Origin: Candidatus Spongiisociaceae bacterium
GTDB taxonomy: Bacteria; Actinomycetota; Acidimicrobiia; Spongiisociales; Spongiisociaceae
Reading direction: 5' to 3'
Assembly: GCA_965219685.1 (NCBI GenBank)
Contig: CBDCOH010000002.1
Location: forward strand, 2,976,001 to 3,040,000
Length of the DNA stretch: 64,000 nt
The position numbers and the translations under genes were made by a program. Positions 42,087-52,320 of this stretch are shown one piece after another (the first letter of the stretch is position 1; each line of letters starts with the position of its first letter). The notes beneath the pieces are model-generated. The model saw only the letters and a list, made by a program, of their open reading frames with translations. It was not told the origin of the DNA and ran no database searches.

Positions 42087-44390
42087 ATGGACCGCAGTCG
42101 TGTAGCGCTAATGGGTCTGCTGGTTGCCGTGTCTCTGGGTTGGGTGAGTGGCGTCGCAGCGTCGCCGGGGGAAGGGTTTTCTGACAGTGCTGGGAGTGTC
42201 CACCGTCCCGGGATCGACGCCTTGGGCGATCTGGATGTGTTCGAGGGCACGGAGTGTGGCGAAGGATTGTTCTGTCCCCAGGATTCGATCCATCGCTGGG
42301 TGATAGCCGTGTGGCTGGTGCGGGTACTGGACGAGGTACCTGTCGTAGCGTCGGGCGGTTCCCGGTTCGCTGATGTGGATCCGGAACGGTGGTGGGCGCC
42401 ATATGTAGAGCGGCTTGCCGAACTCGGTGTCACCCAGGGCTGCGCAACTGAACCTCTTCGCTTCTGCCCGGACCAGGCAGTAACCAGGGCACAGATGGCA
42501 ACCTTTCTAGTCGGAGCGTTCGGACTGGAAGAGGCCCACGCAGCGGGGTTTGCGGACACATCGGGCAATATCCACGAGTCGAGCATCGACGCCTTGGCAG
42601 CAGCGGGGATCACAGCCGGCTGCGCTACCGGTCCGCCCCGGTTCTGCCCCAACCAGCCCGTCACGCGAGGCCAGATGGCTACTTTCCTCGCTCGGGCCAC
42701 CGGGCTCGTCGAGGTGCCCGACCCGGCTGCTGAACCGTCGGGGAAGTTTGCAGCGGTTGCTTCGGGTTACCACCACACGTGTGGGCTTCGTGTAGAGGGA
42801 ACCATCGCATGTTGGGGTACGAACTGGTTCGAGGATGTGGTGTCACCCGAAGGCTTGTACACCGCGGTTACGGTCGGTCGCAATCACTCGTGTGGACTGG
42901 GTGTCGACCATACGGTGACCTGTTGGACCGGCTACCGGTCGAGTAGCGGCGTACCTGATGGGGAGTTCACCACCATTTCGACCTCTGCCGGAGGCTTCCA
43001 TTCGTGCGGCCTGCGCAAAGACCAGACGGTTGCATGTTGGGGTTCTAACGGTGAGGGACAGACAGACTCACCTGAGGGGCAGTTCATGGCGGTCACCGCC
43101 GGTGAGAGGCACTCGTGCGCGCTACGCACGGACGGGACCGCCACATGCTGGGGCTGGGACAAGGCCGGGGCTACCAACCCACCGGGGGGTGTGTTCACTT
43201 CGATCTCGTCGGGTGGGAGCATCGACGGTGGTCACACCTGCGCGCTGAAGCCCGACCAAACCGCGGTCTGTTGGGGTAACAACTCGAAGGGGCACGGGTT
43301 CGTCTCCGGGCAAACAGATGCACCCAGAGGCAAGTTCATCAGCGTCACGGCGGGCTACGACCACACATGCGGGATCCGCCCCGACCGCTCCCTGACCTGC
43401 TGGGGCAACAACCCCTACGGTGGCACCGACGCCCCCGCCGGAGAGTTCACAGCGGTGTCGCCCGGGTTCTGGTACACATGCGGGTTGCGAACCGACGAGA
43501 CCATCACCTGCTGGGGACATGACCATCTGAGGGCGACCGCTCCCCCGGACACCGACGAACAGTTCACCGCTGTCGAAGTCAGTTCGGGATGGAACGGCGA
43601 CCACGCCTGTGCCCTAAAGACCGATCAGACGATCGTCTGCTGGGGCGCCGACACGGTCCGGAGGGAGAACCCACCCGCAGGGAAGTTCACCTCCCTCAGC
43701 AGCGGCCAACTACATACATGCGGAATCCGTACCGATGGCACCGTCACCTGCTGGGGTGGCTGGGGTCGCGTTACGACATGCATCATCTATTCCGATCGAA
43801 GCGACTGCCGGACCTATTGGGAACACGAACCACCGAAGGAACAATTCAGCGCTGTCAGCAGCGGCTACTCGTACTCGTGCGGCCTCCGCACCGATGGGAC
43901 CGTCGCCTGCTGGGGAACAACCGGGCGCGGGTCTCCCACATCCGACATACCCGCCGAGACCTTTCCCATCTCCAGCGGACATGGACACTCCTGCGGGATT
44001 CGAGCCGACCAGACCGTCACCTGCTGGGGCACCATCGACGAGAAGGCACCCGAAGCACCCGACGGCAAGTTCGCCTCGATCTCTAGCGGTTGGCGATACT
44101 CGTGCGGGGTCCGCACCGACCAAACCGTCACCTGCTGGGGCAACCATCGACAAACCGAAAGACTCGACGGAGCCTTCACCGCGGTGGCCGCCGCGGGAGA
44201 ATACCCATGCGGGATCCGTACCGACGGAACCGTCACGTGCGACCACTGGCGCTTCAATGCGCCCGAAGGGACCTACACAGCAATCTCGGGCGGCTACGCC
44301 CAATTCTGCGGCATCCGTATCGACGGAACCATCAACTGCTGGGGCCGGGTCCCGGTACCGCCCCCCGACGGTGTCAACTGGATTACCTAA
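42087..44390 (+). CDS. SLH-domain and RCC1-like repeat surface protein
   Basis: Signal peptide; three SLH motifs (FCPDQAVTRAQMATFL); many F..VS.G..HSCG.RTD.TV.CWG repeats. ATG at 42087 preferred. Confidence 0.85.
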   Translation: MDRSRVALMGLLVAVSLGWVSGVAASPGEGFSDSAGSVHRPGIDALGDLDVFEGTECGEGLFCPQDSIHRWVIAVWLVRVLDEVPVVASGGSRFADVDPERWWAPYVERLAELGVTQGCATEPLRFCPDQAVTRAQMATFLVGAFGLEEAHAAGFADTSGNIHESSIDALAAAGITAGCATGPPRFCPNQPVTRGQMATFLARATGLVEVPDPAAEPSGKFAAVASGYHHTCGLRVEGTIACWGTNWFEDVVSPEGLYTAVTVGRNHSCGLGVDHTVTCWTGYRSSSGVPDGEFTTISTSAGGFHSCGLRKDQTVACWGSNGEGQTDSPEGQFMAVTAGERHSCALRTDGTATCWGWDKAGATNPPGGVFTSISSGGSIDGGHTCALKPDQTAVCWGNNSKGHGFVSGQTDAPRGKFISVTAGYDHTCGIRPDRSLTCWGNNPYGGTDAPAGEFTAVSPGFWYTCGLRTDETITCWGHDHLRATAPPDTDEQFTAVEVSSGWNGDHACALKTDQTIVCWGADTVRRENPPAGKFTSLSSGQLHTCGIRTDGTVTCWGGWGRVTTCIIYSDRSDCRTYWEHEPPKEQFSAVSSGYSYSCGLRTDGTVACWGTTGRGSPTSDIPAETFPISSGHGHSCGIRADQTVTCWGTIDEKAPEAPDGKFASISSGWRYSCGVRTDQTVTCWGNHRQTERLDGAFTAVAAAGEYPCGIRTDGTVTCDHWRFNAPEGTYTAISGGYAQFCGIRIDGTINCWGRVPVPPPDGVNWIT

Positions 44391-44682
44391 ACCCGCCCGA
44401 GCGTTGTCCCCGACCACGCTCACACAGGACTCTCCCGCCGAAACCACCACAACCCGACGCCCAGTGAAGTCCGTTACGTCGTCGTCTTGCAGCGATCGTT
44501 ATCACTACAGCGGATGGACGGTTCGTTACCCGATCACGAGGGCTTGGGCTGGAATCCTCACTCTGCGCGAAACCACTCGTCCCGGGCGGAGTTTACCCCT
44601 GCCTCTTCGGACTGGTGGTCCACCAAACCGGGTCAACCTCAAACCCGAGTTTGGCGGGTTGGATGAACCGCCCCGGATGCTC

Positions 44683-45915
44683 CTATGTTTTGCAAATCGG
44701 TTTTGTGGTCGGGTCGGTGAGCCATTTCTGGTATCGGGTGGCGAGCTGGTGGTTGTGGTGGAGGCCTCGTTCGAGGAGCGAGAGGAGGGTGGGGTGGACC
44801 TGGAGGTGTTCGGCGGCGTCGGTGAGGGTTAGTCGGGTTTGGTGACGTTGGAGGCGGAGGTCGTTGCCGTCGGGTGTTGCGGACGGTTTGGTTAGTAGGT
44901 GGTAGATCTCGCGTGCGATGTGCCGTTTCAGGCAGCGGATGATCTCGCGGCGAGTTTTGCCTTCGGCTTTGCGTCTGCGGGTGTATTCGATGGTGCGGGG
45001 GTCGGTGCGCATCCGGTTGGTGGCGATTCGCCAGAGAGCGTTGTTGGCTTGGCGGTCGCCGCCTCGGTTGAGCCGATGCCGAACTATCTGTCCCGATGAT
45101 GCTTGGACGGGGCTGAGGGCGCATAGTGCCGCGAAGGACCGTTCCGATTTCATGCGTTGGGGGTTGTCGCCGGCGGCGACTAGGAGTGCTGCAGCGCTGT
45201 GGGGGCCCACTCCGGAGGCGGCTAGGAGCGCCGGGTTGGCCTTGGCGCAGAGACGGCGGATCTCGGTGTCGAGTTCGGCTATTTCTGTGTCGAGGGTCCG
45301 GTATCGGCGGGCCAGGTGCCGCAGCGCCTTTTTCGCGTACGCGGTGGTGGTCTGCGCTTCGCCGGGACGCCAGCGGACACAGATTCTGACCATCGCTTGG
45401 ATACTGGAGCCCCGGAGCCGATGTTTGACCTGCTCAGGGGCGGTTGTGAGGAGGGCGTGGATCTGGTTGGCGGCCTGGATGCGTGCTTTGACCGCTGAAC
45501 GGCGAGCCATCCGAAGCATTCTTATCCCTTCTACGGGTCCGTCCCCGCCTTTGGGTCGCCCGGTGGCATCTCCGCTGAGGGCAGCTCGGGCTGCGGCCTC
45601 GGCGTCGACGGTGTCGGTCTTGCCCCTGAGACGACGCAGCTGGCGGTTGGGACGCATGACCTCCACCACCTCGATGTCGGCTCGGGTCAGATAACGAGCC
45701 AGGCCGGCGCCGTAACTACCGCATCCTTCCACACCGACCTGAACCGGCTGCCCCCAGGAGCGAAGCCACTCCTCCAGCTGCGCGTATCCCGCCGCATCAG
45801 CCCTGAACTGCGCCGACCCCAGTAGGCGACCCGTGTGATCCAGCACCGCTCCAACGTGGACATCCCGATGGGTATCAACCCCTCCATACACATCGACCTG
45901 GTCTTGTTCCGGCAT
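44683..45915 (-). CDS. IS110 DEDD recombinase/transposase with C-terminal HTH extension
   Basis: GGVDTHRD, GVEGCGSYG, KTDTVDA, SPVQASSG...HRLNRGGDRQAN; Xre-like HTH tail; ATG at 45915 after GGGGAGG. Confidence 0.92.
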   Translation of the reverse strand: MPEQDQVDVYGGVDTHRDVHVGAVLDHTGRLLGSAQFRADAAGYAQLEEWLRSWGQPVQVGVEGCGSYGAGLARYLTRADIEVVEVMRPNRQLRRLRGKTDTVDAEAAARAALSGDATGRPKGGDGPVEGIRMLRMARRSAVKARIQAANQIHALLTTAPEQVKHRLRGSSIQAMVRICVRWRPGEAQTTTAYAKKALRHLARRYRTLDTEIAELDTEIRRLCAKANPALLAASGVGPHSAAALLVAAGDNPQRMKSERSFAALCALSPVQASSGQIVRHRLNRGGDRQANNALWRIATNRMRTDPRTIEYTRRRKAEGKTRREIIRCLKRHIAREIYHLLTKPSATPDGNDLRLQRHQTRLTLTDAAEHLQVHPTLLSLLERGLHHNHQLATRYQKWLTDPTTKPICKT

Positions 45916-45959
45916 GCGCTCTGCCTCCCCTCTCCTTGTGTCGGAATAGGCTTGTGCGG

Positions 45960-46150
45960 CAGCGCCGGTCCGAAGCGGGTGGACAAAACACTCAGGGTGT
46001 GGGGAAGAAACGACCAAAGCTCCTATGAGGTCACATCCGCTCCGGGCTGGCTGCCCGTACCCCCCGACCGGTGCCCGGCCGACAGATCCGGGGTAAGGCA
46101 CCACAGCCAGTTTCCCGGTGGGTCAGACCAGGCCCCGGTCGAGGTCCCCT
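45960..46150 (-). ncRNA. Putative IS110 bridge RNA (target-binding loop then donor-binding loop)
   Basis: Non-coding end upstream of the recombinase carries segments matching the donor junction (cataggagc, tgagtg) and the target (gggaaac, ccccggat). Boundaries approximate. Confidence 0.7.
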
Positions 46151-46201
46151 TAAGTATGAGTGTTTCTCCGGAGACTCGATTAGTTGGGAGATAATGGAGT
46201 T

Positions 46202-47443
<1,242 letters not shown>

Positions 47444-47559
47444 ACCACTCTCCGGCAAACCCGGGGCGGTTCAGTGGGAGGGATGGTTAGGGGCGTTCGG
47501 GGCGTGTGTGGCTGGGGTTTGGGTGGTTGGTTCCGTTTGCGGGGGCCTGTTGGGTGGGT

Positions 47560-48891
47560 TCAGCAGCGCTGGGGCAGCGTCCGGAGGTTAGCGAGGGTGG
47601 TCTGGTAGGTGTGCGCCCAGGGCCATCGGGCGGGTAGTCGCAGTATGGGGCGTCCGCTGTGGTTGACCACCCGTGCGGGAATCCCGAAGATGCGGGTGCG
47701 GATGGTGCGTCCACGGATCAGCCGCCCGGCCGGCTGTGTTCGTCCCAAGATGGCTATCCAGCGGTAGAGGTTATGCGCTAGAGCGGCGCAGAGAAGCCAG
47801 GCCTGGTTAGCGGCGAACCGTCCCGATGGTAGATGAGCGAGACCCCCGGAGTCTTTGAGGTCGCGGATGGCGAGTTCGCAGACCGCATGGTGTCGGTGGT
47901 GGCGGTCCGCTTGTGGGGCAGGCGCATGCGAGTTGGTCACGAACGCGTGGTAACGCCAGTCGGGCCAGAACTCTTGCTGGGCGCCGGTGAGGCGGGTGCG
48001 GCGCACCACGAGGCGTACTCGGCGTTTCTGCTTACGTTTGCGGGGGTTGGTCATCTCAAGTGTGGTTTCCCCAACTTGTGCCCGGCCGCCTTCGGGATAG
48101 TCGATATCTGCCCAGTCGTCTTCGTCGATAGCCGCTATAGCGGCTAGGACATGGCGGAGTTGTGGGCAGGTGATCGACCAGCCCACCCCGAGGTGGTCCA
48201 AGGTTGCCAACATGGCATAGGACCAGAAGCCCGAATCGGCCCGAACCTCGATCCGTCCCCGAGCCCCGGCCCGTCGCGCGCACCGGATCGTCTCCTGCGC
48301 GAAATGGGCCACACCCCGCCGCGATGCTCCGGCCCTTAGCCGGGCACCCACCGCCTCTCCTGTATCGGCCCGGAACGCCAACAGCGGGTGATAACCCAAC
48401 TCTTTGGTGTACCCATAGGAGGCGCCCTCCTTGCCCCTGCCAGACACTCCACAGATCGTCGAGTCCAAATCCAAGGTCAGCGGTCTCTTCCCCGGGCCGG
48501 CACCCGCTGCCCACGCACGACCCAGCGCCACGCCCAAAACCTTGTTCAACTGGCGGGTGTGGCCCCAGGTAAACGACCGCAGGAAAGTGCCCACCGTCGA
48601 AGGTGCCATCACCTCATGGGACAGCACCCGATGCGTCGACCCCGCCCGCAGCCGATCCACATGATCGATGTGAGAGCCCCCCACCAGCATCGCGGACACC
48701 AACGTCAAGGTCTTACGACCCGGCCGCGCGCCACCCACCCGACCGCCCAAACGGACCACGTCGTCCACCAACTCTTCCAACCCCAGACGGCTCATCAACG
48801 TCGACGCCGCCAACAGACCCCCATCGGCCACCAACCCCTCATCGTCGAAAACCACCTCATACCGGTCAACATTGTGCGATACTCCACTCAC
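47560..48891 (-). CDS. IS1380-family transposase
   Basis: PSTVGTFLRSF, LDLDSTI, GYHPL, VRADSGF, ELAIRDLK, PSGRFAANQAW; end-like ggtggatccagg at ~49000-49011. Confidence 0.9.
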   Translation of the reverse strand: MSGVSHNVDRYEVVFDDEGLVADGGLLAASTLMSRLGLEELVDDVVRLGGRVGGARPGRKTLTLVSAMLVGGSHIDHVDRLRAGSTHRVLSHEVMAPSTVGTFLRSFTWGHTRQLNKVLGVALGRAWAAGAGPGKRPLTLDLDSTICGVSGRGKEGASYGYTKELGYHPLLAFRADTGEAVGARLRAGASRRGVAHFAQETIRCARRAGARGRIEVRADSGFWSYAMLATLDHLGVGWSITCPQLRHVLAAIAAIDEDDWADIDYPEGGRAQVGETTLEMTNPRKRKQKRRVRLVVRRTRLTGAQQEFWPDWRYHAFVTNSHAPAPQADRHHRHHAVCELAIRDLKDSGGLAHLPSGRFAANQAWLLCAALAHNLYRWIAILGRTQPAGRLIRGRTIRTRIFGIPARVVNHSGRPILRLPARWPWAHTYQTTLANLRTLPQRC

Positions 48892-51466: not shown

Positions 51467-51730
51467 ACCACCAAGGGCACGGATGCTGCCTACCGACGGC
51501 CCTTCAACGGCATCCAAGAGCCATTGGCGAACGGTCACGCCGTCGGCACAAACCGGCTGGCCGTCCAACAAACGGCTATAGACGATTACCGGCACATACG
51601 CCTAAAGGCTCACAGGCTCAGACCGCGTCGACGGTCGGATCGGAGTGACCGCACCAGGCGTGTACGCTCGCCCCTTCGTACGGCTCTGTTGGCCCTGCGC
51701 GAAAACACTCATACTTGTAGGGTCCTCTAA

Positions 51731-52320
<590 letters not shown>

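Follow-up and report, generated by a model that had tools for sequence, protein, structure and literature searches.

A putative bridge RNA encoded by an IS110-family element that lies within the terminal repeat of an IS3-family element in a Candidatus Spongiisociaceae genome

We analyzed a stretch of 64,000 nucleotides (nt) from a Candidatus Spongiisociaceae bacterium (Actinomycetota; assembly GCA_965219685.1, contig CBDCOH010000002.1, positions 2,976,001 to 3,040,000 of the forward strand; hereafter, the window), in which an insertion sequence (IS) of the IS110 family lies inside another IS, of the IS3 family. The host element is 1324 bp long after subtraction of the insert and is delimited by the inverted repeat (IR) tips TGAACCGCCCCGG, found at 44664 (plus strand) in the left inverted repeat (IRL) and at 47473 (minus strand) in the right one (IRR). 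A domain search identified HTH_Tnp_1 in its orfA and rve in its orfB, and the Rfam scan an ALIL frameshift pseudoknot at 46480-46596 (102.8 bits), such that the host displays the overlapping helix-turn-helix and rve frames, in this order, the frameshift signal and the repeats beginning with TG that are expected of the IS3 family. The nesting of an IS110 element in an IS3 element, as proposed in a preliminary description of this DNA, is thus confirmed by the domains, by the IR tips on both sides and by the pseudoknot. The insertion point is located thirteen bases into the left repeat of the host (Table 1).

The recombinase encoded by the insert matches PF01548 (DEDD_Tnp_IS110; E = 3.7e-22) and PF02371 (Transposase_20; E = 3.6e-18), and scores 203.6 bits against NF033542, 'IS110 family RNA-guided transposase', for which the cut-off is 140. 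Residues D14, E63, D101, D104 and S273 are invariant across 19 relatives, and S274 is at least 90% conserved. The profile of these 19 relatives matches two transposases of known structure, 8wt6 of IS621 (E = 6.5e-17) and 9t56 of ISCro4; D14, E63, D101 and D104 fall on the IS621 motifs GIDT, IEATG and KTDTVDA, and S273 and S274 on the ESGSS stretch of IS621, where one of these two serines would be the nucleophile. The non-coding left end spans 247 nt versus 6 nt after the stop codon on the right (44677-44682), and the two ends, CACTCATAC... and ...CATAGGAGCAT, compared by eye without a repeat search, are not inverted repeats of each other. A long non-coding left end, a very short right end and the lack of long terminal inverted repeats constitute the layout of the IS110 group, as given in the legend of Durrant Extended Data Fig. 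10.

Table 1 Positions in the window of the host element, the insert and the segments assigned to the putative bridge RNA.
Feature	Positions	Strand	Evidence or remark
IS3-family host element	44664..47473	+	IR tips, orfA/orfB domains, ALIL pseudoknot; left inverted repeat interrupted
IS3 IRL, outer 13 bp (right-target side of the IS110 insertion)	44664..44676	+	paralogous empty copies
IS110-family element as inserted DNA, 1486 nt	44677..46162	-	occupied vs empty sites, constant ...GCAT right end
Recombinase gene, 410 amino acids (aa), with TAG stop within the right-end donor sequence	44683..45915	-	open reading frame (ORF), PF01548, PF02371, NF033542
TTGCAA, putative -35 half of a circle-only promoter	44690..44695	-	TTGACA in most relatives
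Non-coding left end of 247 nt, putative bridge RNA template	45916..46162	-	
Donor-binding module; 7-bp outer stem, GGAGCGG (46037-46043) with CCGCTTC (45972-45978)	45972..46043	-	
UUUU 3' of the right donor guide, putative handshake guide	45985..45988	-	complementary to target AAA(G) 5' of the crossover C
Right donor guide UGAGUG (DNA TGAGTG), reverse complement of CACTCA that starts the left end	45989..45994	-	
Left donor guide CATAGGAGC, identical to right-end bases 44679-44687	46019..46027	-	
Target-binding loop module: outer stem, internal loop, three-pair GGC/GCC inner hairpin	46070..46136	-	RNAalifold, 18 sequences
AU 3' of the right target guide, putative handshake guide	46086..46087	-	complementary to the last two right-end bases (AT)
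Right target guide CCCCGG, reverse complement of CCGGGG in the outer IRL	46088..46093	-	
Left target guide CCGGGAAAC, in the sense of the target top strand	46110..46118	-	
CATACT, putative -10 half	46153..46158	-	17 nt from the -35 half with the ends abutted (13 + 4 nt)
Inner part of the IS3 IRL, TTTCTCCGGAGAC, left-target side for the IS110 element	46163..46175	+	

The left non-coding end contains four short segments that correspond to the two sides of the insertion site and to the two ends of the element itself. All four were recovered on the minus strand at the places where the preliminary description had put them, and their order and strand sense are those of the IS621 bridge RNA, as it had asserted. 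The left target guide agrees with its flank at 7 of 9 positions in the window copy and at 8 of 9 in two further copies, B and C; on the other side, the 8-nt CCCCGGAT at 46086-46093 (minus strand) spans the right target guide and the AU beyond it. The left donor guide sequence occurs exactly twice in the window, once at each end of the element, compared to an expectation of 0.23 (0 of 100 shuffles reached two occurrences). In a first RNA loop, the left guide CCGGGAAAC and the right guide CCCCGG would read GGRGAAAC/CGGGG inside the IS3 left terminal repeat (here and below, a slash stands at the junction), and in a second loop, the left donor guide CAUAGGAGC and the right donor guide UGAGUG would read the joined ends of the element. 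We consider it highly probable that 44677-46162 (minus strand) is an IS110-group element whose left end encodes a bridge RNA with a target loop for the IS3 IRL and a donor loop for its own ends, an RNA that the recombinase would bind. Judging from the promoter halves, which become properly spaced when the ends abut, the bridge RNA would be transcribed, probably from a promoter assembled across the circle junction; in the integrated context, a promoter and terminator scan yielded no sigma-70-like promoters and no terminators, in weak support of a junction-only promoter.

In the consensus structure of 18 sequences, both target guides are unpaired and form the two sides of the internal loop. Across the 19 pairs of the target loop, 94.1% of the cells are paired, versus 36-50% when the partners are slid by 1-3 columns; 5 of the 19 pairs changed on both sides, and none of 500 shuffles equaled the observed pairing or covariation score. 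The donor guides are located inside a conserved 7-bp stem, each position of which is paired in 17-18 of the 18 sequences, with one A-U to G-C exchange. A pairing between the right donor guide and the first bases of the left end that also appeared in the RNAalifold output was set aside because these bases are donor DNA for the guide and probably lie upstream of the transcript start.

Three full copies of the element, 97-100% identical, are present in the genome, namely, A (the window copy), B (C2:215886-217367) and C (C2:4231554-4233034), along with two fragments of the same lineage, D and I. Copies A, B and C, with the left guide CCGGGAAAC, the right guide CCCCGG and flanks ccggRgaaa/C ... ccggKN, are always located in an IS3-type repeat, in constant orientation. 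When the other copies were checked for an IS3 IR target, as the preliminary description had suggested, the lineage was consistently found in IS3-type terminal repeats: the three full copies and two fragments in this genome and one copy in each of two congeneric genomes. A sister lineage in the same genome (F, G and H, at about 70% identity; C2:3057216-3058694, 3093133-3094613 and 1190928-1192406) has the left guide CGCGAAAAC, the right guide CCCACG and flanks cgcgaaaa/C ... cgtggg, with the target GAGGCTTCGCGAAAAC/GTGGG. In the alignment of the two lineages, the parts of the guide-bearing stretch that differ are the two guide blocks. Empty sites of the sister lineage were found at C2:3147714, 3147628, 105057 and 108453, and at 2 of the 4 that were inspected (C2:3147628/3147714, 105057), the target repeat lies approximately 130 bp past the end of an ISL3-family transposase gene, a fragment that matches positions 207-367 of 370 in NF033550 with 107.7 bits, under the whole-protein cut-off. 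Judged by this placement, the sister target is probably the terminal repeat of an ISL3-family element, the other end of which was not found.

A protein search of 201 genomes of the order gave matches in 56, and guides were compared with flanks in 22 distinct copies from 6 genomes; loci L032 and L050 were excluded from all claims. The left guide agrees with its own flank at 7.8 of 9 positions on average and with the flanks of copies carrying other guides at 4.5 of 9, and the right guide at 5.5 of 7 and 2.6 of 7, respectively; the 22 copies are related, such that the counts overstate their independence and have descriptive value only. At two variable positions, the left donor guide tracks the right end: GUAGGAGC occurs with ...CGTAGGAGCAT, and the variant GAUAGAAGC accompanies ...CATAGAAGCAT. 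Thus, as expected of the IS110 group, the guides are complementary to the natural target and to the joined ends and co-vary with both in relatives. The guide, target and donor set of the preliminary description is borne out in this respect, but not with regard to the CA core that was included in it (see below). In one relative (G072, locus L060, C1:1560000-1562400), the element is inserted into its own left-target-guide DNA, CCTTGTAA/CACTCAT; the first 51 nt of the left end now occur three times in tandem, and each of the repeats terminates in CCTTGTAA. A 2026 preprint is said to deal with 'half-match recombination' and may cover self-insertions of this type.

Several observations weigh against the bridge RNA interpretation. 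The agreement between the left guide of the window copy and its own flank is incomplete, copy L059 fits neither guide (4/9 and 2/7), and the relatedness of the compared copies limits what their number can convey. A search of the PDB with the recombinase as a single sequence produced no IS110 match at E up to 10, the top matches being short chance ones to a peroxisomal enzyme; accordingly, the analogy with IS621 relies on a distant relationship. No Rfam family was detected in 44000-48000 at E up to 1, except for ALIL of the IS3 host. The single-sequence fold of the window copy is only mildly better than those of shuffled sequences (z = -2.06; 7 of 200 shuffles as stable), and contains a helix between CCGGG (left target guide) and CCCGG (right target guide). 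This helix exists because of a palindrome in the IS3 repeat, and it is missing from the 18-sequence consensus; the placement of the segments in stems, which the preliminary description had named as a refutation, is thus partly realized in the single-sequence fold, whereas the target guides are unpaired in the consensus. The energy-based folds pair part of the left donor guide in place of an inner hairpin of the donor module, RNAalifold joining this guide to GUGACC with two-sided changes in 0 of 7 pairs. In copies B and C, the recombinase frame is broken by a common premature stop at codon 173, leaving the window copy as the only open frame among the three full, near-identical copies (96-100% aa identity). 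The empty IS3 paralogues used for comparison are 82-89% identical to the IS3 of the window rather than identical twins.

Another adverse point is the lack of a circle junction or an excision joint across 44677-46162 in the contigs of one sample (four runs, about 0.7 of sampled words), in which the repeats are fragmented, although assembled contigs cannot show rare circles or expression. The loose contig ends only repeat known genome junctions, namely, empty IRLs of other IS3 copies and a second IS110 type in copy D. A natural junction of the right end with the left end was found neither in the genome nor in the fetched loci, and the single match to the form of the junction given in the preliminary description is in an unrelated context. 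A gapped junction motif, which is too short for the purpose, had at least 120 matches in the contig collection, from unrelated taxa; none of those listed has IS110-like flanks.

Given that no transcript was observed here, the matches could be features of the DNA itself, either sub-terminal motifs read by the recombinase or flanks captured through imprecise excision, without any structured RNA. The guide-coding DNA is indeed a target in its own right, as illustrated by the self-insertion in G072 and by the other IS110 type in the right-donor-guide DNA of two copies. We nevertheless consider a purely DNA-level origin of the matches very improbable: the four segments are fixed in place relative to a system of stems with compensatory changes, the halves of the site are on opposite strands as in IS621, unlike the expected product of captured flanks, NCBIfam names the family NF033542 RNA-guided, and deletion of the upstream non-coding region abolished circle formation in ISEc21, as described in PMC11187229. 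A weightier alternative, albeit still a rather unlikely one, accepts the bridge RNA architecture but takes the lineage to be immobile now, so that the locus would be a fossil record of past insertions. The codon-173 stop in two of the three full near-identical copies, the interruption and rearrangement of copy D, the one identical and four near-identical IS3 IRL sites that are still empty, and the contigs devoid of a circle or excision joint are all in line with immobility. The window copy, however, retains an intact 410-aa frame with all catalytic residues and four intact guides, the 97-100% identity of the copies suggests recent movement, and rare circles are invisible in contigs; the bridge RNA element in the window may still be active. 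Copies B and C, despite their shared codon-173 stop, occupy different IS3-type repeats, either because a copy that was already defective was mobilized in trans, as is conceivable, or because the spread of B and C may have come after the loss of the frame.

The limits of the insert were also subject to an alternative, namely, the model of the preliminary description, in which a 1483-bp element (44680-46162) with a duplicated CA core resides in the target ggagaaa-CA-tccgggg. CA does stand on both sides of 44680-46162, and under this reading, A-TCCGGGG and the 8-nt CCCCGGAT are perfect reverse complements. The model implies, however, an empty IS3 IRL of the form CCGGATGTTTC, and removal of 44680-46162 does not recreate an IS3 repeat as it occurs naturally: in the uninterrupted IRLs of paralogous IS3 copies, the outer 13 bp are joined straight to TTTCTCCGG..., that is, TGAACCGCCCCGG is directly followed by TTTCTCCGGAGAC or TTACCCCGGAGAC, and ATG is found at the junction in none of the listed uninterrupted IRL-type copies. 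The empty IRL composed of TGAACCGCCCCGG and TTTCTCCGGAGAC is, letter for letter, the window sequence minus ATG. Sister-lineage empty sites with long identical flanks read CGCGAAAA-C-GTGGGG and the occupied ones CGCGAAAA[CACTCAT...GGAGCAT]CGTGGGG; in the genome G174, the IR-tip search pattern has four matches, each of them an empty IS3 repeat, GGGAAACCCGGGG, and the occupied repeat reads GGGAAAC[CACTCAT...GGAGCAT]CCGGGG. CAT is thus present in 0 of 4 inspected sister-lineage empty sites and in 0 of 4 pattern matches in G174, whereas it follows ...GGAG in every copy regardless of the target and, therefore, travels with the element; conversely, the base that precedes CACTCAT depends on the target (A, T or C). 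The right end is ...GCAT in 19 of 19 copies for which it is known, whatever the target, and together with the empty sites, this constancy places the insert at 44677-46162 (1486 nt), with an ambiguity of one base, 44676-46161 being equally possible. We regard the duplicated-CA model as the least probable of the alternatives considered, with next to no chance of being correct; the crossover point of the preliminary description is, by comparison of these sequences, misplaced by three bases.

With the 1486-nt limits, the left CA consists of the shared C and the first base of the left end, and the right CA corresponds to donor positions 6-7, so that neither belongs to a duplicated core; the predicted circle junction, ...GGAGCAT followed by CACTCAT, is 3 nt longer than the previously described ...GGAG-CA-CTCAT. 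The last four donor bases before the left end are CATC and those of the target AAAC, with C as the only shared base; the identical core dinucleotide that would flank an IS110 insert is replaced here by TC in the donor and AC in the target. A true TC duplication was observed in relatives with targets ending in TTC and in the second IS110 type of the genome.

In IS621, the top strands are cut right after the core and the bottom strands four bases leftward; the two bases located 3' of each right-hand guide, known as handshake guides, form pairs with the non-cognate DNA once the strands have been exchanged, the reaction is blocked when they pair with the cognate DNA, and their co-variation is reported across hundreds of orthologues (PMC11208158). 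By analogy, the excised circle of the element analyzed here would recombine with the target at the single shared C, and the cleavage positions would follow from this correspondence. The base 5' of the shared C (T in the donor, A in the target) would be read by AU in the target loop and by the U-run in the donor loop. The target-loop AU fits A and T of the donor, and one of its bases misfits the target A next to C; GAU is present without variation in 20 of 20 copies, and the donor end is CAT in 19 of 19. The donor-loop UUUU fits AAA(G) of the target and misfits the donor T. Each handshake extension would thus fit the opposite DNA, and in IS621, such a fit favors strand exchange. Comparison of the first two donor-loop handshake bases across 20 distinct copies showed UU in 9 copies with targets ending in AA-C, UA in 5 copies with targets ending in TT-C (a further copy with such a target, the exception, has UU), a first G in 3 copies in which the target has C before the C, and UA with the two AC-C targets. 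The first of these bases forms a Watson-Crick pair with the donor T in 0 of 20 copies and with the target in 14 of 20, and in 19 of 20, one or both of the handshake bases fit the target but not the donor. These positions are one base nearer to the crossover than in IS621 and, consequently, include the first 'core' position.

A joint reading of these patterns, which we put forward tentatively and with somewhat less than even confidence, is that one base shared by donor and target suffices for natural bridge recombination in this actinobacterial IS110 clade, and that the genome analyzed here contains a radiation of at least four guide sets, with layered parasitism among IS elements. The unequal core position (T in the donor, A or C in the target) and the co-evolving handshake bases, UU with AA, UA with TT and G-first with C-first, might then constitute a directionality code. 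Possible targets of the guide sets are IS3 and IS110 ends, ISL3-adjacent sequence and the guide-coding DNA of other IS110 copies, and the layered parasitism might be driven by re-programming of a few RNA bases.

Additional IS-in-IS events were observed around the locus and elsewhere in the genome. C2:3.02-3.16 Mb is a dense cluster of insertion sequences, and in the window, a DDE_Tnp_1_4 / DDE_Tnp_1 transposase gene (443 aa; 47560-48891, minus strand) adjoins the right end of the IS3 element. The second IS110-family type, with a protein that is approximately 40% identical, is present at C2:3130184-3131560 and C2:~3051030-3052410, inside the right-donor-guide DNA of copies D and K, that is, an IS110 element lies inside an IS110 element whose relatives occupy IS3 repeats. 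It shows the true TC duplication in the target AACAC-TC, followed by AGGG or AAGG, with the ends TC/TGTGAGTATC...CATAGAAGCA/TC, and its own left guide, GAGAACACUC, matches its insertion site. Copy K (C2:3052415-3052579), with the guides UUGACAAAC and UUCUAU(G), is located at ...GATTTGACAAC/ within the right end of another IS110 copy, with one misfitting junction base, and from this position seems to be aimed at IS110 right ends (-35 region and donor sequence). At 51698-51744 of the window, CGCGAAAA is followed by a 22-nt fragment of the sister-lineage left end, CACTCATACTTGTAGGGTCCTC (51706-51727), and then by the IS3 tip TAAACCGGGGCGGTTCA, an arrangement that looks like a remnant of deletion or recombination between IS110 copies in different hosts.

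Another IS110-like right end, ...GTGGTGGACCCCCATTAGGAGCAT, which differs from that of the present element, is joined to the IS3 repeat at an identical point, /CCGGGGCGGTTCA, at C2:3134372 and C2:3119149 (minus strand). In the relatives L054 and L066, portions of this right end are fused to the left-donor-guide region, and these fusions suggest recombination between the right end and guide DNA mimicking that end. Back-to-back IS3 repeat pairs of about 48 bp without an IS3 body, each consisting of a right-repeat tip and an inverted left-repeat-like half, were found at C2:2939823 and C2:3129977, and one of these pairs hosts copy D. Relative to the left guide, the IS3 right repeats, CCGGCAAACCCGGGG, deviate by one base and in their spacing, and none of the listed IS3 right repeats has an IS110 right end at the corresponding position.

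The element resembles IS621 of Escherichia coli (PMC11208160, PMC11208158) in the DEDD and serine recombinase, in the long left end upstream of the gene and the very short right end, in the target module that precedes the donor module, in the guides of each module, of which the 5' one is in top-strand sense and the 3' one is the reverse complement, and in the extra bases 3' of the right-hand guides that fit the non-cognate DNA; a promoter with the -35 half in the right end, putative here, is described for IS621 in PMC11208160. In contrast to IS621, the protein is so distant that only the family profile reaches 8wt6, the recombinase is approximately 80 residues longer, with a weak HTH_31 match, the common CT dinucleotide is lacking, with one shared C instead, the target is the end of an IS rather than a repetitive extragenic palindromic (REP) sequence, and the window copy has no separate 5' stem-loop, where longer relatives carry about 40 extra nt.

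ISEc21, which was compared by its description in PMC11187229 and not by sequence, is likewise an IS110-family element with an upstream non-coding region and a natural target inside IS3-family elements, and the abutted ends of its circular intermediate are described as creating a promoter. Its target, however, is reported to be conserved sequence within IS3-family transposase genes, at the codons that surround the second D of DDE, whereas the target here is the terminal inverted repeat. IS4321/IS5075 are cited as targeting the terminal repeats of the Tn21 family, and the arrangement analyzed here shares with this IS1111-group system a DEDD-family element that is inserted, at a fixed place and in a fixed orientation, into the terminal repeat of a different mobile element. 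Elements of the IS1111 group carry sub-terminal inverted repeats of 11-13 bp (PMC11187229), unlike the element analyzed here, the two ends of which do not mirror each other on inspection by eye, no repeat search having been run. The non-coding region lies upstream of the gene in the present element, versus downstream of it in the IS1111 group. Predictions of bridge RNAs exist for thousands of IS110 elements, the target motifs of which are consistent with the loop sequences (PMC11208160). Narrow literal searches, with supplementary target lists outside their scope, found no paper describing IS110 insertion into IS3-family terminal repeats. The specialised parasite of IS3 ends envisaged in the preliminary description is thus supported by the consistent location in IS3 repeats, but its implied novelty is not, given ISEc21 and IS4321/IS5075. 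IS-in-IS targeting by this superfamily is already in print, and the locus is, in this sense, biologically unsurprising; it is a clear natural example of the bridge RNA mechanism described in 2024.

For annotation, the case indicates that IS110 boundaries deduced from flanking duplicated bases can err by several bases, and that empty sites are preferable. Two details appear worthy of experiments: the single shared base, with a handshake that involves the first core position, and the presence in one genome of several guide sets aimed at IS ends. The locus suggests that natural systems may follow the shared-dinucleotide rule less strictly than IS621 does and that handshake bases may cover a core position; experiments are needed, and a looser core rule would bear on the design rules of bridge editors. 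The locus provides a complete natural set of guides, target, donor and empty sites for an IS110 lineage far from IS621, with an internal control in the form of sister lineages that, in the same genome, carry different guides at different targets.

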